The notes beneath the pieces were generated by a model. The model made no database searches. It was not told the origin of the DNA and saw nothing but the letters and a program-made list of their open reading frames with translations. This document shows positions 31,060 to 60,024 of a stretch of 64,000 bases of DNA, one piece after another; the stretch's first letter is position 1; every line of letters begins with the position of its first letter. Source of the stretch: a virus; IMG/VR virus record IMGVR_UViG_3300026484_000436, positions 32,001 through 96,000 of that record; one strand, written 5' to 3'. Position numbers and translations under genes: made by a program.

Positions 31060-32190
31060 TCATAGTCTGGGATATACCTTTAAATCGACTATATCTATAT
31101 CAATGACATATTCTTTTTTACAATTTGGGCAAGTTAAAATTATGTTTTCTAAATCTATATCAAATCTAACAATCTGCTCATCTAATTTTAACACTTCTGA
31201 AGGCATTGAGTATTTTATAACATCAATCTTTTGCTGTAAAATCATATCCTCATTTTTTATATATAATGCTTTTACAATCGTTTCGTCAGAAGTATTTAAT
31301 TCATCTTGCAATCTTTCAAGATTTTTTTCGAGAAAAATATAATCACGAATTGTAAGTGGTGCTAATTCTAATTCAACACCTTCAAGATTGAAATAAATAG
31401 GCACTTCGACATTTGAATCCTCAACCCTAAATGCCAAATCTGCAAGTGTTATTTTTGAATTTATAACTGTATTACATTTAACCCTTAAATTGTCTGGATT
31501 GCTTTTAAGTTTATCTATTTCCTTTTGAAGTTCCCCAATTTCTTTAACTAATTTTTCAATATCACTTTCTGCCTTTTTCAAATTTTCGTCTTTGAAATTA
31601 GGTAAAGTCATATTTATATTCTCTAAAATAATTTGTTTGTTTTTTATCATTTTTTCGTTTTTTGTAATTTTTGGGTTGTCAATTATATTATCACATCTAA
31701 AATTCGGACTCCAAGAATGTTCTGGGTTTGTATAAAGATTTGAAATTGTAGTTGCTAAAACAAAATCTGAAATTTCCATATCTTCGATAGTCATATTTGG
31801 GTCTTCAAATTTTATGGCATTTCTAAAAACCTTTACACCTTCAGCAATTGAATAATCATTATTGAACTTTGATAATTCTCTAACCTCATCAAAAAACAAT
31901 CCTCTAACATAAAATGCTTTATTTGACCCATAACTTCTAAACATTGAAGGGGTTTCTTCAACTTTTTGATATTCTATTTCTTTTTCGATTGTCCCCAATT
32001 TTACTTTTTGTTTTTCACTCGTAATTTTTGGGAATTTAATATCTACTTCTTCTTTTGCTACTTCGTATTCATATTGTTTTTCTTTCATAGTTTTTGAAGA
32101 TCCAATATCTACTTCATATTGTTCTTCCTTCGTAGTTTTTGGGATTTTAATATCTTCTTCTATTATTTCATATTCATTTTGTTTTTCCAC
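31060..32190 (-). CDS. Baseplate hub assembly / tail chaperone, gp26-like
   Basis: C-terminal TCPNCK motif, PLTIRDY; lies upstream of the tape measure. Confidence 0.65.
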   Translation of the reverse strand: MEKQNEYEIIEEDIKIPKTTKEEQYEVDIGSSKTMKEKQYEYEVAKEEVDIKFPKITSEKQKVKLGTIEKEIEYQKVEETPSMFRSYGSNKAFYVRGLFFDEVRELSKFNNDYSIAEGVKVFRNAIKFEDPNMTIEDMEISDFVLATTISNLYTNPEHSWSPNFRCDNIIDNPKITKNEKMIKNKQIILENINMTLPNFKDENLKKAESDIEKLVKEIGELQKEIDKLKSNPDNLRVKCNTVINSKITLADLAFRVEDSNVEVPIYFNLEGVELELAPLTIRDYIFLEKNLERLQDELNTSDETIVKALYIKNEDMILQQKIDVIKYSMPSEVLKLDEQIVRFDIDLENIILTCPNCKKEYVIDIDIVDLKVYPRL

Positions 32191-38607: not shown

Positions 38608-38941
38608 AATTTTAGGAATGTTTTTAATTGGTATTTTGTTTTTAGGGTGTCAAGAACCAGAACCCAAAAAAGTGTTAGTAGTTAAAAAAGTTTATATTAA
38701 AGAAAAGGTTCCTGTTTTATCACAATTTTCTGTAGGAGAATACAAATTGAGTGCCATAAATAAAGGTGGTAAAATTTATATCAAAGAATGGGATGCCACT
38801 ATTGATAAAAAGGAATTTTTGAAGTTTATAAAATACATAAAATCATTAAAAATGACTTTATTACAATACAAAAAAGAAGTAGATATTTATAATGATTATG
38901 CTAAAAATCATAATAAAGAGTTGAACTCAACCCTAAAATGA
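38591..38941 (+). CDS. Outer-membrane lipoprotein spanin (Rz1-like)
   Basis: Signal peptide with FLGC lipobox; GGAG RBS before ATG 38591. Confidence 0.7.
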   Translation: MKLIFKILGMFLIGILFLGCQEPEPKKVLVVKKVYIKEKVPVLSQFSVGEYKLSAINKGGKIYIKEWDATIDKKEFLKFIKYIKSLKMTLLQYKKEVDIYNDYAKNHNKELNSTLK

Positions 38942-39862
38942 TTTAACTAATTCATCAAGAAAAGACGAAATGTCTTTCTTGGTATTGAATACTGCCCCGA
39001 ATGCAACTCCGTGCCCTCCAGGGTTACCATTGTGTTTTTCTATTAAGTTAAAAATTGTTTCTCTTTTATCTTCGTTATTTACCCTCACACTTATTGTCAT
39101 TGATTGGATATTAACATTGACACTAATCTCATAATCAAAAAACTCCGAATAGTGATTTGCATACTTAAAATCAAAACTTATTAAAAATTTACCTTTATTT
39201 ATAATTATACCTTTTTCTTGTAATTCTTTAAAGGTTTTTTCAATTTTACCAGCATAACTTTTCATTAAGTTTTTTTGATTATCATTTAATTTATAATTTT
39301 GTTTTATCATTTTTTCGGCAAAATCATAGTTAAATTCTTCCCAAAATAAATCATTTAACATATTTGCTATTTTGAATTTAGGATTATCTTTTTGCCAAAT
39401 ATCATAAATATCTATCAATTCTACTAATTTTTTAAGATTTTGTCTTGGTACAGAGTCGATATCTTTAATAAATAATTCAAATGTTTTTAAGGTCGCACTC
39501 TTTGTATCATCTATAAAAATTTTAGCGCTGAACTCATTTTGGATTTTTTCTAAGTATGTTTTATCATCGTATAAATGGTGGTCTATATAAATAATCTTTC
39601 CTTTAAAATTATGCTTTTTTAAAGTATCGTATAACTTTTTTTGATGTTCTTTAATAAAATTTAAGTCAGTTATTATAAAAGCATCATAATAGGTTAAATC
39701 TTCAATTTTATCTAACATTTCGGGAATTTTGTTATATCCCATATTTTTAAAATTCAATTCAGCAGTTTTATATTTTCCTATTGGATTAAACTTTTCGTTT
39801 ATCACTAATTGGCACCCATAACCATCTAAGTCAGCGTGCGAAAAATTGAGTATTTTTTTCAT
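38933..39862 (-). CDS. DHH/DHHA1 phosphoesterase (NrnA/NrnB-like)
   Basis: SHADLDG, ITDL, IDHH and GGH..AFG motifs. Confidence 0.88.
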   Translation of the reverse strand: MKKILNFSHADLDGYGCQLVINEKFNPIGKYKTAELNFKNMGYNKIPEMLDKIEDLTYYDAFIITDLNFIKEHQKKLYDTLKKHNFKGKIIYIDHHLYDDKTYLEKIQNEFSAKIFIDDTKSATLKTFELFIKDIDSVPRQNLKKLVELIDIYDIWQKDNPKFKIANMLNDLFWEEFNYDFAEKMIKQNYKLNDNQKNLMKSYAGKIEKTFKELQEKGIIINKGKFLISFDFKYANHYSEFFDYEISVNVNIQSMTISVRVNNEDKRETIFNLIEKHNGNPGGHGVAFGAVFNTKKDISSFLDELVKSF

Positions 39863-39880
39863 CTTCTCTCCTCTTTTAAA

Positions 39881-40339
39881 TTATTTATTATCAATATAGG
39901 AATCAAAATATCTATAAAGTATGTTTTCTTCAAGTTGAATTCTTTTTATAATTATACTCATAATATAAACAAATTCATTTTTAAAATTTTTTATATTATT
40001 TTTATTTATATTTTGATATTTTTTTAAAAACCTTTCAAATTTTGAAGTTATTTTTTCCATCTCTTTTTTAATTTCATTTATATAATTTTGAATTGTTATA
40101 TCAGGGTTTCTTTTTTCAAAATTGTCCTCAATAATTTTATAAAGTAACTCGTCTTCTTTTTGAAGATGGGCAGTTAATCCTTGTATAAATTCATTAAAAT
40201 TTTTTGTTAAAAAATTTACATTTTCATAATCTGCTGCTTCAATAATTTTAAGATATATTTCATATAATTTCGCATGCTCGTTATGAAATTCTTCTGTAAG
40301 TTTTTTCTTAGCAAAAAACTTTTTGATATTTTTAATCAT
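39881..40339 (-). CDS. Hemerythrin-like (HHE cation-binding) protein
   Basis: EH...HLQKEDELLY...RIQLEENILY motifs. Confidence 0.8.
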   Translation of the reverse strand: MIKNIKKFFAKKKLTEEFHNEHAKLYEIYLKIIEAADYENVNFLTKNFNEFIQGLTAHLQKEDELLYKIIEDNFEKRNPDITIQNYINEIKKEMEKITSKFERFLKKYQNINKNNIKNFKNEFVYIMSIIIKRIQLEENILYRYFDSYIDNK

Positions 40340-40366
40340 TATTTATCCTTCAATTTTGAAAAGAAA

Positions 40367-40624
40367 TCAATTGATTTCTTTTCTAATTGTTTTGACATTC
40401 ATTTTTTTGTTTTTTAATCTTGTTTTAAGTGCTTTTTTCAAAATTAAGGCACTTTTACTTTTTCTTTTTAATGCTGCTTTTTTTGAACCCTTTTGTCTAT
40501 TTTTTATTTCTTCTCTTGACATTTTTTCACAAGATTTTTTTCCCGTTTTAGGGTCTGTAACAATTTTATGGTCTTTCTTTTTGCAAGTGAATTTTTGTAT
40601 CATTAACTCTGCTAATACATTCAT
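40367..40624 (-). CDS. Basic protein resembling T4 gp68 prohead core
   Basis: C.KMSREE.KNR.KG.KKAALKRK...LKKALKTR pattern. Confidence 0.55.
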   Translation of the reverse strand: MNVLAELMIQKFTCKKKDHKIVTDPKTGKKSCEKMSREEIKNRQKGSKKAALKRKSKSALILKKALKTRLKNKKMNVKTIRKEIN

Positions 40625-40638
40625 CTCTTTCCTTTATA

Positions 40639-40667
40639 ATTATATCACAAAATAATAAAAAAGTCAA
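40639..40667 (-). promoter_or_regulatory. Sigma70-type promoter with extended -10
   Basis: TTGACT-N17-TATAAT with TG. Confidence 0.8.
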
Positions 40668-42173
40668 TTATTTTTGATAAATTTCTTTAATTTCATCATA
40701 AAAATCCCAACTACAAGGTGGGGTATTTTTTTTGAAATAGTTATAGTCTTCTATATTATTTAAAATATTCGTGGCAGACACATCATCATCTCTTTTTAAC
40801 TCAATAACATTGATATTATCATCTAAAAATTTTAGTTGAGATTTATAACTTTCTATTCTATCTGTTCCTGCATATATTGATTTTAATCCAATCCCAAAAA
40901 TAGATTTTTGTAAAATTTTAGGAATTAAACCATTTTGAGTTGAAACGAACTCAATTTTTTCAATATCATCTTTAAAACAATTCGAAATAAGTTTTTTTCT
41001 AAATTCAAATGTTTTATCTTTACCCCTTGCAACAGTCAATGCTAATATCAAATATTCATTTTCTAAAAGTGCTTTTTTAATTAATTGAAAATGCTTTTTG
41101 CTAAGAACTCTAAATTTACCAACTATCAACCCTGTTTTAGGTGCCATCATTTTTAAAACATTTAATTTTGAAGTTAAAAATAAGTCATCTTTAATGGTTG
41201 CCCAATTTTTCTTTGGATGAAGTATTGAATCCTTACTCAAATTTTTTATTGCTTTACTTATTTCCGAAAAAACATCTTCAATAGATTTATTTTTTGTATC
41301 GATTGTAGATAATATATTTTTGGCAGTGTCTTTTACATTTACCCAATAAATTGTTTCTTCTTCCATTGTTCCTCTTGTCGCATTTTTCATTGCCAATCTT
41401 TCTTCTTTTGATAATTGGTATTCTTGCTGAAATTTATAAGGTTTATCATTATACCAAACTACGAACCCTTCAGGTTTTCCACCAAATTTACTTTCTGCTT
41501 CTAAAAAAGTGTCAAGTAATAATTTAAAATATTCTTGTTTATTTTCAATTTTATCTAATCCATTCGGCAATAATTCACGAATTTTAAGCGATTTGACATT
41601 TTGTATTAAATTTGAATAAGGATATAAAACACCACCAAAAACAACAGGTGGAATATGAATTCCTAAAATGTTAGCATATTCTTCTCTTTTATTATCAAAT
41701 CCAAAATCTGAGTTATCACAAATCATTATACCATTTTTAACTTGACAATTAGACTTTCCATAACTCAATAAAATTAAATTATAAAGGTCAGTATAGTTGC
41801 TCATTAAAGTAGGTTTTTTAATTAAGTATTCACAAAAAAATTGATATCCTTTAGGTAGTTTTTCAACATCGACCCTTTCTAAAATATCAAAAATAAATTT
41901 ATATTGACTTGCTCCTAATGATTGTTTTGCTTCTTCATCATCATTATACCCAGATTCATTTTTTGATAAAACATTACCCTTATAAGCAACTATCCAATTT
42001 TCACTCAAAAGTTTTTTATTATCTGCATCTTTTTTAAGGAAAAGTTGAATTTTAACACCATCTGTCTTTTCTTCAATTTTTACATTCGATGACAAGAAAG
42101 TGTCAATATCACTTTCTTTTTTTAATGCTTTTTTTAATTGTTTTATACTTATGTCCATTACTTTTGCCATCAA
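40668..42173 (-). CDS. Fusion of an ATP-dependent polynucleotide-ligase-like domain and a C-terminal cytidylyltransferase-like (HIGH-family) domain
   Basis: EKTDG (motif I), FCEYL, EGFVV, YKFQ; then IVGKFRVLSKKH, AGTDR, VSAT. Confidence 0.7.
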   Translation of the reverse strand: MMAKVMDISIKQLKKALKKESDIDTFLSSNVKIEEKTDGVKIQLFLKKDADNKKLLSENWIVAYKGNVLSKNESGYNDDEEAKQSLGASQYKFIFDILERVDVEKLPKGYQFFCEYLIKKPTLMSNYTDLYNLILLSYGKSNCQVKNGIMICDNSDFGFDNKREEYANILGIHIPPVVFGGVLYPYSNLIQNVKSLKIRELLPNGLDKIENKQEYFKLLLDTFLEAESKFGGKPEGFVVWYNDKPYKFQQEYQLSKEERLAMKNATRGTMEEETIYWVNVKDTAKNILSTIDTKNKSIEDVFSEISKAIKNLSKDSILHPKKNWATIKDDLFLTSKLNVLKMMAPKTGLIVGKFRVLSKKHFQLIKKALLENEYLILALTVARGKDKTFEFRKKLISNCFKDDIEKIEFVSTQNGLIPKILQKSIFGIGLKSIYAGTDRIESYKSQLKFLDDNINVIELKRDDDVSATNILNNIEDYNYFKKNTPPCSWDFYDEIKEIYQK

Positions 42174-44198
42174 TCAATCCTTACTCATTATATTTTCGAC
42201 TTGTTTATATGTTTTCTCAGAGTTATACTCAACCCTAAATGTGTTTCCATTTTTATTCCATTGAATATGGTAAAAAGTCGGCACATCTTGAATATCTTTA
42301 ATAAAATAAGTGTTTATAACAAGGTATTTATTTGTGTGTTTGAAAGATTTATCTATTGACGAAGTCATTTTTATTTCGAAATATAAAAGTTTATAATTTT
42401 CAACTATTTCTTTAATTTTTTTACCCACTTCATCTTCCCCACTAAACATATATTGACCTATATCTAATAATTCAACTTTTTTATCAACTAAATAATCTAT
42501 AAATAAATTATTTTCAGTATTACCCATTTTTGAATTTTTTTCATATTTTTTTAATGAATTTGCTATTTCGATTTCACTTTTTTCATTAAATTTTGTTAAA
42601 AACTTATACAGATAATCCAAAACGAATACATTCACTACAATTTGAGCAAATTCTGCTTCCGAAAATGGTGTATTATATGGCGATTCAATTTTTTTATAGT
42701 CTTCTAAATTATTTAGAATATTTTTAAATGTTTTTAAATCATATACCATTTTATCATTATAACCCAGATATTTTGAAAAAGAAGCATAGTTGTTTAAAAA
42801 ATTATCAATAATAGTATTACCTAATTTAATAATTTTTTTCGTTTCTTTGTTATCTACAATTTGTTTAATGCTGAATTTTGCTTCATTTATTCCAACTTTT
42901 TTAAAATAATTGGATACATTTTTTGAAATTTCTTTTTCCGCACTTTTAATGTTTAATAACGATTTTATAAAGTTTGATATATTACTAAAAAATGATTTTA
43001 TATTAGAAATTACTTTTTTAGAAAATTCTATTGATTTTTTGAAAAAACCTTTTGCTGTATCCAGTATTCCTTCATCCAACTTGTTTGAATGATTTTCAAC
43101 ATTTAAACTATCAAGAATTCCATTACCTATATCATTTCTCACATCAGTCGTAATTTTTCCTATTCTTGCTTCTTTTTTTCCTTTTTTCAAAGAAACCTGC
43201 ATAAAAAAGTACTCGTTACCTTTTTCGTCTATTGTTTTATATGTGCCGTAAGTACCTTCAACTAATTCAGGAGCACCTGATTTAAAAAATCCATTTTCTA
43301 AATTTATGCCATTTTTTGAAAAAATTAATGCGACATCTGCTGTATTATTTTTTGCTGATGAACTTTTGTCAAGGAATGATGTTTGCCATTTATAAAAATC
43401 ACCTATTTCAGAATGTAGTATTTTTATATTATAACCTTTGAGTTTTGACATATCTTCAACCAGAATATTTGAATCATATCTCGAATTGTCGTTTATATAC
43501 ATTAACAATTCTTTAACATAATATAAAACTTCTGACCTTTTTTCGTCTGTATCAAATTTATTGAATAAAGTTATCAATTTATAAGAATTTAATTTATCAT
43601 CATTTTGTTTAATTTTTTCAAGTAAAGTATCCCACAATCCTTGAGAATTTTCAATCATAGATGTTTTTTCCAATTCAGGAAAAAATGGTAATTGATTTGT
43701 ATAGTTTAATAAGTATCCTAAAGAAGCAAAGTATTCCAAAATATCAGTAACATCTTCAGATTTTAACTTGAACTCTTTTCCTGCACCTTTTTTATCCCAG
43801 GTATTTTTGCTTATATTATTGAAAGCAATGACATCGCCATTATCTATTTCGATAAATTTTGAAAACCTTGAACCTGTTTTCACACTATCTAATTCTTTAC
43901 AAAATTCTTTGATATTTACAGGGTCTTCAGATAATTGCTCGTAATAATTTGATGAAATTTTGGCAAATTTAATCATAGTATCTATACCACATTCAAAGAA
44001 AATTGCTTTAAGATACTTAAAAAATTTGTTTTCAACTATTTTACCTGACTTGATATTTTTACCGACATTATATAAAATCTCTTTATTGTTTGTTACATCT
44101 TCAAATAATTTGGCAATTAAAGATACCTTTCTTGAAGAAGTATGAATAGGGGATTCATAAATTGATTGTTTAATTTCTTCAAAACATTCTTTTAACAT
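42174..44198 (-). CDS. Putative head-internal protein with a PD-(D/E)XK-like motif
   Basis: MLKE leader; NTADV...QVSLK; LDEG/INEA sites resembling prohead-protease cleavage sites. Confidence 0.45.
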   Translation of the reverse strand: MLKECFEEIKQSIYESPIHTSSRKVSLIAKLFEDVTNNKEILYNVGKNIKSGKIVENKFFKYLKAIFFECGIDTMIKFAKISSNYYEQLSEDPVNIKEFCKELDSVKTGSRFSKFIEIDNGDVIAFNNISKNTWDKKGAGKEFKLKSEDVTDILEYFASLGYLLNYTNQLPFFPELEKTSMIENSQGLWDTLLEKIKQNDDKLNSYKLITLFNKFDTDEKRSEVLYYVKELLMYINDNSRYDSNILVEDMSKLKGYNIKILHSEIGDFYKWQTSFLDKSSSAKNNTADVALIFSKNGINLENGFFKSGAPELVEGTYGTYKTIDEKGNEYFFMQVSLKKGKKEARIGKITTDVRNDIGNGILDSLNVENHSNKLDEGILDTAKGFFKKSIEFSKKVISNIKSFFSNISNFIKSLLNIKSAEKEISKNVSNYFKKVGINEAKFSIKQIVDNKETKKIIKLGNTIIDNFLNNYASFSKYLGYNDKMVYDLKTFKNILNNLEDYKKIESPYNTPFSEAEFAQIVVNVFVLDYLYKFLTKFNEKSEIEIANSLKKYEKNSKMGNTENNLFIDYLVDKKVELLDIGQYMFSGEDEVGKKIKEIVENYKLLYFEIKMTSSIDKSFKHTNKYLVINTYFIKDIQDVPTFYHIQWNKNGNTFRVEYNSEKTYKQVENIMSKD

Positions 44199-45415
44199 AG
44201 TATTTTGCCTTTAACTTCTAATAAACTTTCTTTAAATAATTCACCCATCTCTCTTGCCCCATAATTCGCATAATAAGTTTTAACCATTTCTTCATCAAGG
44301 TATTTTTCAAGGTATGGAAATGCTTTAATAAAATAACTAATTGCGCCATTTTTAATTTCATAATCAAGTTTGGCATTTCCTCTTTCCAATTCTTGACCTA
44401 TATTTTTACCACTTTTATTCTCATATAAAAGTTGAGTAAATCTTTCAAATGTTTTAATGATTTGATCTTTTGTAGCATATTTTTTTAACAACTCTATTAC
44501 ACCAACGAAACTCCAAAAATCACTAACTTCATTTTGAGTAGGTTCAATTTTGAAAATAACTTTTAAAATATCATTTATTTCTGTTTTATAGATACTTTCC
44601 GAAGTTTTAAGTTCTCTTAAAACAATTTTTCCATCAATTTTTGCTACTTCGTCATTACATTTAAGTTCTTCAAAAGCAACTCTAATACCTTTCGAAACAC
44701 TAAATTTTAAGAAATGTAAATCTTTAGGTTTTCTTTTTAGTTTTTTCTCATAGTTGCCACAATTTGCTGAATTCGTTACCACTACATACTTATCCAAATC
44801 AATTTCAGACATAGAATGTGAAATACTTCTTAAAAGATATTTATGAAAAACTGCTTTCACTCCGTTTTGTAAATCTTTAAAAGTTGAACTATGTCCAAAT
44901 CTTGCGAACTCATCTGGACTATCATTTTCATATTTTGCGAATTCAAAATCTATTTGGGCATAAACTCTACCTGCTTTTGAATTATATTCAAAAAGTCCAT
45001 TTATTTGGTCTATTATACTTCTAACAGAAGGTTTGTTACATCCTAAATAAACGAATTTTCCATATTTTTTACCTTCAATTCCTTGTAAAAAATACCATAC
45101 TTCTTCTTTTAAATCTTCGGGAAGTACAATATCTATATCTCCACTTGAAGGTTTTAATTTTAACAATTCTTCTTCTTTACTAAGCATATTTGCATCCATT
45201 AAGTATGAAGTTGAACCATTGAAAATAATCGCATCATCTATTAAACTATCTTTTTTCCATATTTTTCTTCCTGTATCTTTTTCAAAATCTTTGTTAAGTT
45301 GATGTAACAATCCACGAATATCTTCTTGAAATTGTTTTAAACCAATATCTTTAACAGGAATTTTGTCTGCTTTATAATTTTTTCCAAACTTATTTATTGA
45401 AACATTGCCACCCAT
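44192..45415 (-). CDS. Pol-beta-superfamily nucleotidyltransferase
   Basis: MGGN start; NGST...SGDIDI...QIDF motifs. Confidence 0.7.
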   Translation of the reverse strand: MGGNVSINKFGKNYKADKIPVKDIGLKQFQEDIRGLLHQLNKDFEKDTGRKIWKKDSLIDDAIIFNGSTSYLMDANMLSKEEELLKLKPSSGDIDIVLPEDLKEEVWYFLQGIEGKKYGKFVYLGCNKPSVRSIIDQINGLFEYNSKAGRVYAQIDFEFAKYENDSPDEFARFGHSSTFKDLQNGVKAVFHKYLLRSISHSMSEIDLDKYVVVTNSANCGNYEKKLKRKPKDLHFLKFSVSKGIRVAFEELKCNDEVAKIDGKIVLRELKTSESIYKTEINDILKVIFKIEPTQNEVSDFWSFVGVIELLKKYATKDQIIKTFERFTQLLYENKSGKNIGQELERGNAKLDYEIKNGAISYFIKAFPYLEKYLDEEMVKTYYANYGAREMGELFKESLLEVKGKILC

Positions 45416-45434: not shown

Positions 45435-45496
45435 TATTTAATAATGAATCATGTGATTTACATTATAATTATACCATTTAAAAATAAAAAAGTCAA
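45435..45496 (-). promoter_or_regulatory. Tandem sigma70 promoter (45468-45496) and late TTAAATA motif (45435-45441)
   Basis: TTGACT-N17-TATAAT with TG; TTAAATA upstream of the RBS; TCATGTGA between them. Confidence 0.7.
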
Positions 45497-45520
45497 GTGA
45501 TTTTTCAAAAAATCACTTGA
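45494..45520. terminator. Hairpin after the pilin gene, overlapping the -35 of the next promoter
   Basis: CAAGTGATTTT...AAAATCACTTG inverted repeat. Confidence 0.55.
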
Positions 45521-45527
45521 AATTTTA

Positions 45528-45944
45528 TCAATCCGTATTGCAAGTTTTATTTATTTCTTTTATCCTAAATACATAACTCAAAGATTGGTCGTTTTGATTA
45601 ATTTGGACAACTTTTGTATCTCTTATAACTTTTAAACAAAGATTATCATTATAAGAAACATTAAAATCTTCGTAGTTGTATTCCACTTTGAATGGAGTTT
45701 CGTTTATATCTTTAATATAATTTTTTATGTTTTCACTTCTATCTATTATTTTTGATAGATTGTCTTCTTTTGTTAAAGTGTATTGCTCATTAGCAAATGT
45801 GGAAATTTGATGTCCCACTTCTGGAAAATTGGCAGTTTCGGCATTCTTTTTAGTTGTTAAAAACTTCGGTACAGCAACTGCTGCCAAAAGTCCAATTATT
45901 ACAATGACAAAAATCAATTCTATTAGTGTAAAACCTTTTTTCAT
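45528..45944 (-). CDS. Type IV pilin / pseudopilin (prepilin N-terminal cleavage-methylation domain)
   Basis: MKKG/FTLIELIFVIVIIGLLAAVAVPK class III signal with E5; two C-terminal Cys. Confidence 0.9.
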   Translation of the reverse strand: MKKGFTLIELIFVIVIIGLLAAVAVPKFLTTKKNAETANFPEVGHQISTFANEQYTLTKEDNLSKIIDRSENIKNYIKDINETPFKVEYNYEDFNVSYNDNLCLKVIRDTKVVQINQNDQSLSYVFRIKEINKTCNTD

Positions 45945-45957
45945 TTTAATTCCCCTT

Positions 45958-46326
45958 TTATTCAATTACCAAAAAGTCTGCTATAATTGTGTCAGTTGAA
46001 CTTGGTGCTTCTGTAAATGATATTTTTTTATCAGAAAATGTATAATCATCGTCTTTTAATTGTCTAACACCATTCTTAAACACCATTGGGTTACCTATAG
46101 GTGTATTTTCTAAATCGAAGTCTTTCGCAAAACCATTTCCTGAAAATTTTTCTGAAGACATTGAATAATTAACAGCATCTCCCCCAACATCGTTAAGAGT
46201 CGCAAGTTTAACTCCATCTAAAACAAGCGGTGCCGAAATAGGTATATTTCCATCTGAATCTTTTTGAAATAATTCAAAATCCGCTGAACCTGGTAAAATT
46301 TGATTAGCATTCAATAAAGTTGCCAT
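45958..46326 (-). CDS. Virion structural protein with a small beta domain
   Basis: FSGNG...F.L...P...VFKNGVRQ....DY....I.F.EAP motif. Confidence 0.55.
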   Translation of the reverse strand: MATLLNANQILPGSADFELFQKDSDGNIPISAPLVLDGVKLATLNDVGGDAVNYSMSSEKFSGNGFAKDFDLENTPIGNPMVFKNGVRQLKDDDYTFSDKKISFTEAPSSTDTIIADFLVIE

Positions 46327-50075: not shown

Positions 50076-50909
50076 TTATAATCCTTCAACCTCAAGAACC
50101 ATATTTTCAGATCCACATTTTCCCACACCTGCCATTCCTGCTACTATCAGACCTTTTTGTGCTCCTGTCGCAACAACTTTTACAAGAATTTCAATATCTT
50201 TAAAAATAAGTTCAGGGTCTGCATATTTTCTTTCTGCTAATTTTTTCTCAGCAGTTTTCATTTGTTCTGTAATTGAATTATCTTCAGCAGAACCTTTTGT
50301 GATTTTGAATGATTTATATTCATCGTCGTCCCAAACACCTTCATCTTTCATAATTTTTTTAAGTTTTTGAGCAGAACTTCCACCTTGCATTGGGTCAATA
50401 CCTTTTGCTATCGCATAAGCATTTATTTTTTTGTTTAATTTAGGATTAAACTCTTCATTTACACTTTCTCCAATCGAAGCAGAATTATTTTCAAGTGCAT
50501 CTTTAATTACACCAACCACTTCCACGATATTTAACCAATCAGGAATATAAATTGTTTGTGAGGGTTGTCCGAATGATGAACTTCCATCAGGTCTCCAAAA
50601 ATCGACTCTATTTACACTAAATTTATTTTTTAAACCTTTCGCTTTTGTTTTTCTATTAACAAATCCAAATCTAATCATATATCCATTTTTTGAAAGATAT
50701 TGAAAACCTACACCTTTTTCTCCATCGCTACTTGTAAAATCATTTTTGAAAAACGAATCTGTCATTTTTTTAAATTTACCAAATTTACTTTTTGAAAATA
50801 AACTTGCTAAAAGTTCTGAAACTTTTAATAGATTTTTTTCACTGAACGCTTCGTTTAAATACCCTTTCGAACTTAAACCTTTTGCTTCTAAAATAACATC
50901 TTTAAGCAT
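50076..50909 (-). CDS. N-terminal part of an AAA+ ATPase ending in a half Walker A plus IntN
   Basis: GLIVAGMAGVGK/C; MLKDVILE leader; TTAAATA at 50941-50947. Confidence 0.88.
   Translation of the reverse strand: MLKDVILEAKGLSSKGYLNEAFSEKNLLKVSELLASLFSKSKFGKFKKMTDSFFKNDFTSSDGEKGVGFQYLSKNGYMIRFGFVNRKTKAKGLKNKFSVNRVDFWRPDGSSSFGQPSQTIYIPDWLNIVEVVGVIKDALENNSASIGESVNEEFNPKLNKKINAYAIAKGIDPMQGGSSAQKLKKIMKDEGVWDDDEYKSFKITKGSAEDNSITEQMKTAEKKLAERKYADPELIFKDIEILVKVVATGAQKGLIVAGMAGVGKCGSENMVLEVEGL
50079..50117 (-). mobile_element. IntN fragment of the split intein (13 aa, CGSENMVLEVEGL)
   Basis: Cys immediately after GMAGVGK; stop 13 codons later. Confidence 0.85.
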
Positions 50910-51784: not shown

Positions 51785-52003
51785 TTATATGTAATTTATT
51801 ATTCCTATTATATTAACAATAACATAAACAGCATTTAGTGTAATAAGATTTTTATTTTTAATATCATAACCAAATTTTAAGTAACAAAAACTGCTCAATA
51901 AAAAAATAAAAAATCCAATACCATTTATGCCTATATTTGATGCTATTATAACTGCCCCTACAATACCAAAAAGTGTTCCCAAAAAGTCCCATTTAAGATT
52001 CAT
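51785..52003 (-). CDS. Small membrane protein (three TM helices)
   Basis: Hydrophobic throughout. Confidence 0.6.
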   Translation of the reverse strand: MNLKWDFLGTLFGIVGAVIIASNIGINGIGFFIFLLSSFCYLKFGYDIKNKNLITLNAVYVIVNIIGIINYI

Positions 52004-53108
52004 TTTGTGCCTTTAATTTACTTATCATCTCCCTTGCTTTATTAAGTTTATCATATCTTTTGATATAATATTCTTTACATTTTTTAACTAATTCATCTTC
52101 ATCTCTTGATTTCATAATTGCCCCGAAGAAAAATGCTTTTTTATGTTTAATCGCATATTCTTTTCTATCCATTGTTTCTTTTTCTTTAAAAATTTCAAGT
52201 GCTTCTTTTAGTCTATGGTTGAAATTGTGAGAAACTAAATCTCTAACTTCTTCAACTTTTTTGAATTTATCGCCTTTTAAATTACTCATAATATCGTCGA
52301 TATTTTCATTTATTATATGTTCTATAAGTTTGTTTTCAACTAATTCATTTGGGCTTATTAAATGATGTAAAGCAAAATACCATTTTGTTTTGAATTTTCT
52401 AAATTGTGTTTTTCTGTTTTTTATGCTTTTATTTCTAACAACCCACCCTTCAAGTCCTATAACTGTTTCTTGTAATTCTTCAAGTTCTTTAAGTGTATAT
52501 TTATATTTTTTTGTAACATATTTTTCTGGAACTTTTGAAATGATAAAATCATAATCCATATAATTACCATCTTTATCTCTTATTTGTAGGATTTTTAACT
52601 CGCTTTTATCATAATCTATAACTATTTGATTAAAAGGTGATATATATTCCATTAAAGGAAAATATCCTTCTTTAATTAAACCTTTTAAAATTATTCTTAA
52701 TTCAGGTTCATTATCCAAAATCATTTGAGCATTCATTGCTTGTTCTGAGTTGAATGTTCCTTTTGTTTTTAATCTTATGTTATCATTAATAAAAATAGGT
52801 TGAATTAAACTTCCATCTAATTTTTCTGTAACCTCAATTTCATTATCTGTATCCCATTTCGCATGCTCGTCCATTGTGAATGGATTTTCATTATGATTGA
52901 AAAACTTATGTAGTGAATACCACACTTTTCCCGTATCCAATTCAATCGTTAAACCTCTTAATTCTTCTGAACCTTCAGGTAAAAAATCCGAGTAACTTCC
53001 CAATCTGTAATTGAAAATTCTAAATGTTTTATCTTCAACTATTTCATCTTTATAATAAAATACATCTGAGTTGTTTTCAACTATTTTCATTGCTTTTTTT
53101 AAATTCAT
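51993..53108 (-). CDS. rnlA: RNA ligase 1 (T4 RnlA-like)
   Basis: IFNY, ELRGL, KFFN, EKLDGSLI, EGWVV, KFKT.WY..LH motifs. Confidence 0.9.
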   Translation of the reverse strand: MNLKKAMKIVENNSDVFYYKDEIVEDKTFRIFNYRLGSYSDFLPEGSEELRGLTIELDTGKVWYSLHKFFNHNENPFTMDEHAKWDTDNEIEVTEKLDGSLIQPIFINDNIRLKTKGTFNSEQAMNAQMILDNEPELRIILKGLIKEGYFPLMEYISPFNQIVIDYDKSELKILQIRDKDGNYMDYDFIISKVPEKYVTKKYKYTLKELEELQETVIGLEGWVVRNKSIKNRKTQFRKFKTKWYFALHHLISPNELVENKLIEHIINENIDDIMSNLKGDKFKKVEEVRDLVSHNFNHRLKEALEIFKEKETMDRKEYAIKHKKAFFFGAIMKSRDEDELVKKCKEYYIKRYDKLNKAREMISKLKAQNES

Positions 53109-55383: not shown

Positions 55384-55614
55384 TTATATTTTTTTAACCT
55401 TACCTGCACTCATATCTGCTTGAATGGCATCATCAATTTCACTATTTGAACCCAATTCATTATATTTATTAGCATATTGTTTAACTAATTCATCAGGGTG
55501 CATATCCGAATCTTCAATAACCTCGAATTTTTCCTTATTCCATACGAAATAACCACTTTTAGCACTTACTTTTTTCTTTGCTTCGTCCATACTTTTTAAA
55601 ATTTCTTTTAACAT
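55384..55614 (-). CDS. Small MLKEIL-leader protein between nrdA and nrdB
   Basis: AAGGA RBS; TTAAATA at 55635-55641. Confidence 0.6.
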   Translation of the reverse strand: MLKEILKSMDEAKKKVSAKSGYFVWNKEKFEVIEDSDMHPDELVKQYANKYNELGSNSEIDDAIQADMSAGKVKKI

Positions 55615-58508: not shown

Positions 58509-59294
58509 TTATATTTTAAATTCACAAGAACCTGTTCCATTATATCCATAAGGACACCACTTACAAACTAATTTTGAAGGAGTTGGTTGATAATCTTCTG
58601 CTTTGTCTGAATTTGGTATTTTCATTCCCCTTAAAATTAAATTTTCTATCGTTTTTTGCAAATCATCCAGTGTAACTCGTCTTGTAAGTTTTTCATTATG
58701 GTCTAAATAATAATATCCTACAATGATTTTATCAAAGGGTCTTTTTTTCAAAATGACATTTAAAGCATAAGCATATAAATAAACTTGTAAAAAAGTTTCA
58801 TCTGTATCTTTTGCGATGTTACCTGTTTTCCAATCTATCACATATAAAGTATTGTCATCTGTACCATAATAATCTATATAACCGGCAAAATCACTTTTTC
58901 TACTATATCTATCTGAAACCTCAACTGTTCCATCAGACATAAAATTCATACTAAATGGTGCTTCTGTTTCATAATCAAGACTCAATAATTTTTTAACGAA
59001 TGGAGTTTCAAGTGCTAAGTCGCATTTTTTACTTGTTTTTTCATAATCGTCCTTTGATAATGTACTCGACTTGAATTGACAAGGTGTATGCTTGAACTTG
59101 CTTTCCATATATTTATGGGCATATTGTCCAATTTTGAAAAATTTTGGATTATATTCACTTTTAGGAACTTTCTCTTTAACGATATTTTGTAAATAATATC
59201 TATAAGGGCAACTCTCATAAACTTTTAATTTTGTTATGCTAAGACTCAATCGGTCTTTATATTTTTCTGTTTTTTCAAGTATTTCTTTAAGCAT
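58509..59294 (-). CDS. PD-(D/E)XK RecB/Cas4-like exonuclease with a four-Cys cluster
   Basis: LS.TKL..Y..CP..YY, GYID, IDWKTG, Q...Y, CKWCPY...C; MLKEILE leader. Confidence 0.88.
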   Translation of the reverse strand: MLKEILEKTEKYKDRLSLSITKLKVYESCPYRYYLQNIVKEKVPKSEYNPKFFKIGQYAHKYMESKFKHTPCQFKSSTLSKDDYEKTSKKCDLALETPFVKKLLSLDYETEAPFSMNFMSDGTVEVSDRYSRKSDFAGYIDYYGTDDNTLYVIDWKTGNIAKDTDETFLQVYLYAYALNVILKKRPFDKIIVGYYYLDHNEKLTRRVTLDDLQKTIENLILRGMKIPNSDKAEDYQPTPSKLVCKWCPYGYNGTGSCEFKI

Positions 59295-59661: not shown

Positions 59662-60024
59662 TTAAAAGTTATTTTCCATAAATTCAATATGTACGATTAA
59701 CTGGTCATTTGATAGAGCATTAAAAACTGTTTCAACGAAGTATTCTCCCCCATCAAGGTCAGCAGCATATTCATAGTAATAATCTTCAATGAATTTTTTA
59801 TATTTATGTTTTGCATAAAGTTCATTTAATTCTGGATAATTGTTTTCAAAATCCCCATCTTCCATAACCAATAAATCAGCGACTTCTTTTGCTTCTTTAT
59901 CACTTAAACCACTTACAAATTCTTCAGCAACTGCCGAAACACCAGCACCACCAATAATTTCTTGTAATCTTTCGTAAAGAGCATTTCTTTCAGATCCTAA
60001 ACCTTCTAAAACTTCTTTAAGCAT
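59662..60024 (-). CDS. Acidic MLKEVLE-leader protein
   Basis: Start re-assigned to ATG 60024 after AAGGA; TTAAATA at 60042-60048. Confidence 0.6.
   Translation of the reverse strand: MLKEVLEGLGSERNALYERLQEIIGGAGVSAVAEEFVSGLSDKEAKEVADLLVMEDGDFENNYPELNELYAKHKYKKFIEDYYYEYAADLDGGEYFVETVFNALSNDQLIVHIEFMENNF

Follow-up and report, generated by a model that had tools for sequence, protein, structure and literature searches.

The virus record IMGVR_UViG_3300026484_000436 carries, within the 64,000 nucleotides analysed here (positions 32,001 to 96,000 of that record, hereafter the window), three closely packed minus-strand genes, which are referred to as genes 1, 2 and 3 in the order of their transcription (Table 1). 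What do their products do, and do all three of them belong to one machinery? A preliminary description, made from the nucleotide sequence alone, had read them as a nucleotide-transfer operon composed of a polymerase beta (Pol-beta) superfamily nucleotidyltransferase (NTase), a nuclease-like protein, and a ligase fused to a cytidylyltransferase-like domain of the HIGH superfamily. Cleavage of tRNA or rRNA is a common form of host defence, and little has been charted of phage counters to it beyond T4 Pnkp/Rnl1. In our analysis, genes 1 and 3 probably constitute a phage-specific repair module that heals, fills and seals, most likely acting on broken RNA cut by host defences; the probability of this reading is estimated at about 0.6. 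Gene 2 is best read as a lineage-specific, fast-diverging occupant of a variable slot, outside of the conserved pair.

Linkage of genes 1 and 3 across large phages

Large phages nearly always keep genes 1 and 3 adjacent or fused, which strongly supports a cooperation of the two products on nucleic acid. Among 79 loci of the IMG/VR database with the ligase of gene 3, 67 also contain the NTase of gene 1 in the flanking sequence retrieved, and in 66 it lies on the strand of the ligase. The NTase is adjacent (≤150 nt) or fused at 42 of these loci, and 12 loci encode single proteins of 954-1314 aa with the arrangement LIG-MID-HIGH-NT (ligase domain, helical linker, HIGH domain and NTase). Seven of the 12 loci without an NTase lie on contigs that end within 250 nt upstream of the ligase. 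The HIGH domain is retained in divergent and in fused forms of gene 3. Genomic association with RNA ligases, a mark of the NTases known as RlaP, is hence a property of gene 1 as well. The preliminary description had proposed that the three genes act together and had named co-occurrence in other genomes as a check. For the pair of genes 1 and 3 this is borne out by adjacency and fusion, whereas gene 2, with two detectable relatives, is absent from 81 of 83 module loci and its membership does not hold.

By tblastn, the two proteins are found in exactly the same records of cultured phages, 15 of Campylobacter Firehammervirus and 6 of Vibrio phages (Va1/phiKT1024 group); the two genes are close in the Vibrio phages and lie about 66 kb apart in the Campylobacter phages. 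The pair spans Campylobacter Firehammervirus, Vibrio phages, and many uncultured T4-like and jumbo phages, and CP220 and Va1 are cultured models that carry it. The gene 1 family comprises more than 200 protein clusters. It is nearly confined to viruses: in cellular genomes, it was found on only 5 contigs of metagenome-assembled genomes among 185,579 species, and 3 of these contigs also have module genes.

Two kinds of companion genes recur: 24 loci have a metallophosphoesterase of the calcineurin type, and 13 have a P-loop kinase of the AAA_33/Zeta type, which is fused to the ligase in one locus (L037) and to the NTase in another (L072). P-loop kinase and calcineurin-type phosphoesterase are the healing activities of bacterial Pnkp. 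Otherwise, the neighbourhoods are made up of T4-like genes of the ordinary kind; in related phages these include an ATP-dependent DNA ligase encoded separately.

Some loci depart from the common arrangement. A 183-kb IMG/VR contig (L011/L085) displays a ligase-HIGH gene with no linked homolog of gene 1, and an RlaP gene (PF10127, 9.7e-13) about 30 kb away; in this single case, one family of fill-in NTase could have been swapped for the other. Xanthomonas phage X1 (OQ427096.1) has a weak gene 1-like match at 80075-80623 and a HIGH match at 82543-82998, annotated adenylyltransferase/cytidyltransferase. The two are 2 kb apart, and the linkage therefore reaches Xanthomonas jumbo phages. Stand-alone 345-aa proteins with the HIGH domain in their N-terminal half and a C-terminal half without an assignment are encoded at L089 9663-10700 and L081 54-1091, and the former lies directly downstream of a full MPE-NT-LIG-MID-HIGH set (MPE, metallophosphoesterase).

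Predicted activities of the two proteins

Gene 1 has no match in Pfam, NCBIfam or PADLOC, and is assigned to phrog_19290, which PHROGs lists with function unknown. Its structural model reaches a predicted local distance difference test (pLDDT) value of 93.2, with 53 homologs in the alignment. Residues G67 S68, G92, D93, D95, Q154, D156, D181 and K187 are invariant in 59 distinct homologs, which confirms the GS...DID...D motifs pointed out in the preliminary description. The protein thus displays the hG[GS] and DxD motifs and the third carboxylate of the Pol-beta superfamily, and its palm aligns to many members. We regard it as an active-looking Pol-beta-superfamily NTase, catalysis being predicted from these residues.

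Family X polymerases account for 8 of the 11 top VIA-align matches of gene 1 (Z 7.2-7.8, 168-187 residues). These matches span palm and thumb (model residues ~6-304) and comprise Pol beta (4rpx, Z 7.8), TdT, Pol lambda, Pol mu, Leishmania Pol beta, Thermus PolX, and Pol X of African swine fever virus (ASFV; 5hr9, Z 7.2, 168 aligned). Terminal uridylyltransferases (TUTases), cGAS-like enzymes, OAS and poly(A) polymerase match the palm only, over ~100-118 residues. Foldseek agrees weakly with family X (E ~2e-3), and the BFVD matches are many uncharacterised phage proteins followed by Pol X models of giant viruses. The canonical family X enzymes also possess fingers and an 8-kDa domain, whereas the matches of gene 1 extend over palm and thumb only. 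Comparison with family X by sequence profile gave no match. Since the Z values are middling, gene 1 is termed Pol X-like here, and not a member of family X.

An assignment of gene 1 to RlaP (PF10127) was considered and ruled out: neither gene 1 nor any of 53 family members matches PF10127 at E≤1, and comparison with the genuine phage RlaP of the 183-kb contig by hhalign yields a probability of just 0.5%. By sequence, gene 1 belongs to a distinct, unnamed family. The GGN that follows its initiator methionine is invariant, and in fusions with an internal copy of the domain it persists as EGGN or ESGQS. Because it is retained at internal positions, it is part of the fold, and the idea that the N-terminal MGGN represents a special N-terminus or leader was rejected.

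Gene 3 consists of a ligase domain, a helical linker found in all family members, and the HIGH domain (Table 1). The window protein has no Pfam match and falls into phrog_27149, again with function unknown in PHROGs; its AlphaFold model has a pLDDT of 90.6 and a predicted template modelling score of 0.85 (39 homologs). In the ligase domain, motifs I (K36-x-D-G-x-K41), III (E115), IV (E235-G236) and V (K247-F-Q249) can be recognized, and K36, D38, G39, K41, E115, K120, E235, G236, K247, Q253 and R259 are invariant in 70 distinct homologs. The EKTDG (K36) and EGFVV (E235) motifs noted earlier are therefore real, and the ligase signatures KxDG, E and EG of motifs I, III and IV do not vary in the family. 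Two homologs of 636 and 642 aa (P0004, P0006) contain an intein of ~137 aa (PF14890) inside motif I, KLDG|C, and their extein continues with the counterpart of V40 in the window protein. Intein insertion is typical of functionally critical sites.

Residues 1-260 of the model match the RNA ligase NgrRnl (5cot) with Z 11.3 and a root-mean-square deviation (rmsd) of 4.2 over 189 aligned residues, T4 Rnl2 (1s68/2hvq) with Z 10.8/10.7, and the editosome ligase REL1 (1xdn) with Z 10.2; Foldseek against 2hvr gives 2.4e-7. PF09414 (RNA_ligase) appears below threshold in several homologs, and is absent for the window protein. The relationship with T4 Rnl2 is visible only by fold, because hhalign of the family against the T4 Rnl2 sequence gave nothing.

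At residue 249, 14 positions after E235, the 70 homologs have Q, L, V or T and in no case K, whereas K247 (E235+12) is invariant; equivalence with the motif V lysine of other ligases (T4 Rnl2 K227, NgrRnl K326), which contacts the alpha phosphate of ATP, is judged by spacing and strand register, not by superposition. In NgrRnl, the essential motif V residue Lys326 lies 14 residues after the motif IV residue Glu312 (PMC7261155). Mutants T4 Rnl2 K227Q and NgrRnl K326A lose enzyme adenylylation and still seal pre-adenylylated ends (PMC3149579, PMC7261155).

Residues 346-501 of gene 3 closely resemble nicotinamide mononucleotide (NMN) adenylyltransferases (NMNATs): 2qjo matches with Z 15.7 (rmsd 2.5, 150 aligned) and 1f9a with Z 15.3. 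Phosphopantetheine adenylyltransferase (PPAT, 4nah) follows with Z 15.0, and Foldseek agrees. The family profile matches NMNAT 9x6f at 8e-8 across the whole C-terminal domain. The signatures are G352-K-F-R-x-L-S358-K-K-H361, D438-R439, R461 and S466-A-T (ISxT). H361 is present in 70 of 70 homologs and S466 in 69 of 70, and 68 of 70 have T or H at position 358. With the (H/T)xGH and ISxT motifs and a Rossmann-like fold, the domain belongs to the HIGH/cytidylyltransferase-like superfamily. Its description as a degenerate HIGH-family domain is hence correct as to the domain, and as to degeneracy for the window copy, which reads SKKH against T/HxGH in the family; for the family as a whole, degeneracy does not apply. 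Because their motifs are conserved across the 70 homologs, both the ligase and the HIGH domain look catalytically competent at family level.

The substrate of the HIGH domain cannot be read from its fold, because PPAT scores as well as NMNAT. Options considered were adenylylation of a 5'-phosphate, the clearing of abortive adenylates, and a true NMN or phosphopantetheine reaction; AMP transfer serving the ligation would appear most likely. NMNAT chemistry is the transfer of AMP onto a ribonucleotide 5'-phosphate. Given this chemistry and the absence of the motif V lysine in all 70 homologs, one may conceive a split-chemistry ligase, in which the NMNAT-like domain would adenylylate the 5'-phosphate of the RNA and the ligase-fold domain would perform only the formation of the phosphodiester. 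We hold this to be unlikely. A profile of 64 ligase domains against the PDB weakly matches 9c6l, 'RNA ligase1' (E 0.5), the motif V of which reads K-L-H; a ligase lacking the second lysine may therefore exist, and this lowers the appeal of the idea. If it were true, split chemistry together with a Pol X-like partner would represent an undescribed class of fill-and-seal RNA repair, widespread in large phages.

Proposed RNA repair and its alternatives

We hypothesize the following course of events. A host ribonuclease, e.g. an anticodon nuclease, would cut the RNA and may remove a nucleotide. Enzymes that relatives encode beside the pair, a 5' kinase and a 2',3' phosphoesterase, would then heal the ends. 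The product of gene 1, as a minimal Pol X-like NTase, would add the lost nucleotide(s) at the 3'-OH, and the Rnl5/Rnl2-like domain of gene 3 would seal the nick between 3'-OH and 5'-phosphate. In the models, a Pol X-like thumb and a ligase of the nick-sealing type suggest action in a nicked or gapped duplex context. The preliminary description knew of no function for such a combination. RNA-ligase-associated Pol-beta NTases have, however, been published: on broken tRNA, RlaP extends the 3'-OH by 1-2 nt, and the proposal is that it puts back, ahead of ligation, nucleotides that nucleases of the RloC type have taken away (PMC12776372, PMC7824862).

Comparison with established systems shows where the module fits and where it departs. 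RlaP (PF10127; T4 NrdC.11, RlaP of the Pseudomonas RtcB operon) is likewise a Pol-beta NTase genetically tied to phage RNA ligases. Gene 1 differs from it by lying outside PF10127, by its Pol X-like palm and thumb and its own helical C-terminal domain, and by having one specific ligase-HIGH fusion as partner, to which it is sometimes fused itself. T4 Pnkp with Rnl1/Rnl2 and bacterial Pnkp(-Hen1) share the heal-and-seal principle, in which kinase and 2',3' phosphoesterase work with an ATP-type RNA ligase, and the ligase fold of gene 3 resembles Rnl2/Rnl5. Unlike these systems, the module lacks Hen1 and adds a fill-in NTase and an NMNAT-like domain, its motif V is without the second lysine, and healing enzymes were not found in the window. 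The trypanosome editosome (RET2 TUTase and REL2) also couples a 3'-OH-extending Pol-beta NTase to a nick sealer of the Rnl2 family, but it is eukaryotic, directed by guide RNA and free of a HIGH domain, and its TUTases match gene 1 in the palm only; the similarity lies in the logic and does not reflect common descent. ASFV Pol X and DNA ligase, a minimal base-excision repair pair, combine a polymerase X made of palm and thumb only with a viral ligase. This pair acts on DNA, its ligase has an OB domain, and it comes with no HIGH domain, kinase or phosphoesterase. Archaeal/NadM/NadR NMNATs and PPAT have the fold and the T/HxGH and ISxT motifs of the C-terminal domain of gene 3, which differs in always standing behind an RNA-ligase domain and, in the window protein, in its SKKH.

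Several points weigh against RNA repair. The phage already encodes an Rnl1-type ligase. Kinase, metallophosphoesterase, RlaP and tRNA genes were not found in the 105.6-kb fragment that constitutes the record (searched with PF10127, AAA_33, Metallophos_2, local kinase and phosphoesterase hidden Markov models, and aragorn); since this fragment is estimated to be 47% complete, absence of healing enzymes from the phage is not thereby shown. A repair scheme does not account for the HIGH domain, and we know of no characterised system in which a repair enzyme needs an NMNAT-like domain. The middling similarity of gene 1 to Pol X (Z <8) could equally point to DNA, and DNA ligases score just below RNA ligases on the gene 3 model (6rce, Z 9.8 vs 11.3). 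These last two points lead to a kit for nicks or gaps in DNA or RNA-primed DNA, in which a minimal Pol X would fill a one-nucleotide gap, possibly with a ribonucleotide, and an Rnl2-like ligase would seal it, in parallel to ASFV Pol X with its ligase or to the ribo-patch of bacterial LigD. A 3'-ribo nick is a substrate that ligases like Rnl2 accept. In structure, gene 1 is indeed matched best by family X DNA polymerases, including ASFV Pol X, and by Pol X models of giant viruses, and kinase and 3'-phosphoesterase companions fit the repair of DNA strand breaks too. However, the ligase domain of gene 3 lacks an OB domain and is best matched by sealers of RNA-strand nicks, the sub-threshold matches of its homologs are to RNA_ligase and not to DNA ligase, related phages encode a separate ATP-dependent DNA ligase, and RlaP, the published analogue, acts on RNA and not on DNA (PMC12776372). 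A DNA kit thus appears rather improbable.

The closeness of the HIGH domain to NMNATs, by profile as well as by fold, and the strong conservation of its T/HxGH and ISxT motifs may suggest instead that it is a true NMN adenylyltransferase, which would restore NAD+ against NAD-depleting defences or make RNA capped with NAD or App; the ligase-fold and Pol-beta domains would modify or tag RNA or protein. HIGH-type NMNATs fused to other domains are known in phages (PMC7824862). Yet none of the NAD-salvage partners Nampt, Nudix and RNK occurs in 80 neighbourhoods, the recurrent partners being a polynucleotide-kinase-like P-loop protein and a Pnkp-type phosphoesterase, and PPAT is as good a match as NMNAT; we consider nucleotide chemistry of this kind distinctly unlikely. 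A further alternative is the scheme of the preliminary description, a virion-packaged machine in which, after injection, gene 2 would cut, gene 1 would tail and gene 3 would ligate. The translational coupling of gene 2 to gene 1 speaks in its favour, as do the position of a distant gene 2 relative inside another copy of the module, a D288...S336-x-K338 core that does not vary in the gene 2 family, and the restriction endonucleases HpaII, HaeIII and MspI as neighbours of gene 2 in the ESM Atlas, which are leads only. In addition, the family of a distant cyanophage relative of the HIGH domain ('cytidylyltransferase') has a member, that of S-SZBM1, in virions (PMC9146016). Against it stand the absence of gene 2 from nearly all module loci, its much faster evolution, and its lack of any profile match. 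Packaging itself, in the manner of the capsid-targeted internal proteins of T4, finds no support in the window: the sole promoter-like site found upstream of the genes is of early type, the start of gene 2 is common, and the GGN of gene 1 is not a leader. Such a machine appears very improbable.

What is known about gene 2 agrees with its reading as a slot occupant. In the nearest DNA relative of the region, the metagenome contig L083, the syntenic homolog of gene 2 is 60% identical, compared to 93% and 92% for genes 1 and 3. The one other relative, in L015, lies just upstream of an MPE-NT-KIN-LIG set (KIN, kinase) and displays 26% identity (pairwise E 1e-12). No relatives were found in phage genomes by tblastn, and both a word search of 5.8 billion proteins and phmmer over 1.84 billion representatives returned the protein itself alone; a pattern scan of IMG/VR gave L015 and L084 only. 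There is no profile match in Pfam, NCBIfam, PADLOC, PHROGs or the PDB, and in hhalign comparisons with 15 clusters of unrelated neighbour genes from related loci, no probability exceeded 7.4%. Elsewhere, the slot between NTase and ligase holds a kinase, or unrelated open reading frames of 92-454 aa. Gene 2 is read as lineage-specific because this slot is filled by different genes in different phages. The three known members share the core NT(A/S)DV...F.QVSLKKG..AR.G.ITT..R (residues 285-351), and D288 and S336-L-K338 are invariant in them, in three sequences only. This core contains the D...SLK of the preliminary description, which may correspond to the D...(D/E/S)xK catalytic core of the PD-(D/E)xK restriction-endonuclease-like fold (alpha-beta-beta-beta-alpha-beta). 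The named neighbours in the ESM Atlas mentioned above are endonuclease clusters at 0.82-0.86, to be taken at the level of a lead, and the Atlas model is of low confidence (pLDDT 0.48). Gene 2 may be an accessory, possibly nuclease-like protein. Of the further features attributed to it before, the INEA site is not conserved in the relatives, and the MLKE leader is not special to gene 2. At least seven open reading frames of the window start with MLK(E/D/K), e.g. 50076-50909, 55384-55614, 58509-59294 and 59662-60024, which suggests a start context favoured in this DNA; the reading of MLKE as a capsid-targeting leader was therefore rejected.

A set of cyanophage genes touches upon the HIGH domain as well. 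S-PM2 p142, a cyanomyovirus 'cytidyltransferase' (T4-GC190), is homologous to it in its C-terminal half (hhalign 95.5%, E 1.6e-8). The neighbouring p141 (192 aa) has a KWDG motif of the ligase type, and p143 has a DGGN string reminiscent of the GGN of gene 1 and no profile match (L094 8026-11562, p141-p143). The three may represent a very divergent cyanophage version of the module. The 'cytidylyltransferase' of S-SZBM1 was detected in virions, together with an adjacent hypothetical protein, by liquid chromatography-mass spectrometry (PMC9146016); a relation of these two proteins to genes 1 and 3 is putative.

That a Pol-beta NTase may work together with an RNA ligase is a known concept. New, with respect to the libraries and literature searched, are the NTase family, the fact that a ligase-HIGH protein is its obligate and sometimes fused partner, and the lack of a lysine in motif V. 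Gene 1 would represent a second, independent family of ligase-associated fill-in nucleotidyltransferases. The pair has no Pfam family and no PHROG annotation, and it offers an obligatory and unexplained NMNAT-like domain on an RNA ligase. If the module repairs RNA that has lost a nucleotide, this would account for the way in which phages overcome 'repair-proof' nucleases of which RloC is an example, and the pair might serve as a tool for RNA ligation.

Transcription unit and surrounding DNA

The window has ~25% G+C. No near relative of the region was found among 50,697 phage genomes by megablast, and the closest DNA, JGI contig L083, is ~81-87% identical. As stated in the preliminary description, the three genes overlap or abut: the end of gene 1, with its stop codon, and the start of gene 2, with its ATG, share the 7 nt ATGTTAA, and the TGA of gene 2 immediately abuts gene 3. 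The start of gene 3 is more likely the ATG at 42170, 8 nt 3' of an AAGGA.

Table 1. Features of the three-gene unit in the window (coordinates of the 64,000-nt stretch)
Feature	Position	Strand	Remarks
Gene 1	44192..45415	-	407-aa Pol-beta-superfamily NTase; Pol X-like palm and thumb; helical C-terminal domain
Gene 2	42174..44198	-	674 aa; coupled translationally to gene 1 via 7-nt overlap
Gene 3	40668..42173	-	501 aa
Gene 3, ligase domain	41379..42173	-	residues 1-265; covalent nucleotidyltransferase, nick-sealing RNA-ligase type
Gene 3, helical linker (MID)	41139..41378	-	residues 266-345; found in all family members
Gene 3, HIGH domain	40668..41138	-	residues 346-501 and stop; NMNAT/PPAT-like nucleotidyltransferase
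Terminator-like hairpin	45493..45520	-	12-bp stem, T run; ends upstream pilin-like gene
Sigma70-like promoter	45468..45496	-	TTGACT-17-TATAAT, extended -10 TG, 11/12 matches
Second promoter, same type	40639..40667	-	directly 3' of gene 3 stop; marks 3' limit of operon

The strong sigma70-like site in front of gene 1 is a probable early promoter of the three-gene unit, and its -35 box shares positions with the 3' arm of the terminator-like hairpin. The -35 box is part of an exact 14-mer, TTGACTTTTTTATT, of which there are just two copies in the window (45483-45496 and 40654-40667, both on the minus strand), each with an extended -10 TATAAT on its 3' side. Because these promoter copies bracket them, the three genes look like one transcription unit. 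Tandem early and late promoters had been claimed; the early-type site stands, whereas a late promoter of T4 type, TATAAATA, was looked for upstream of gene 1 and not found.

T4-like genes of the window include an Rnl1-type RNA ligase, ThyX, the small subunit of ribonucleotide reductase, and a pilin-like protein. The ligase at 51993-53108 on the minus strand is of the T4 Rnl1 type (RNA_lig_T4_1, 5.6e-22), as noted earlier, and also has a tRNA-binding-type C-terminal domain (T4_Rnl1_C, 6.9e-6); together with gene 3, the phage hence possesses two unrelated lineages of RNA ligase. Directly upstream of the operon, 45528-45965 on the minus strand encodes a protein of 145 aa, the N-terminus of which has a methylation motif of the prepilin type (PF07963, 2.8e-7). 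The second promoter leads into the next unit (38933-40624, minus strand), which encodes a basic, lysine-rich protein of 85 aa, a hemerythrin-like protein (PF01814, 1.3e-9), and a 309-aa open reading frame that lacks a Pfam match at 1e-3 and displays a DHH-like N-terminal sequence.

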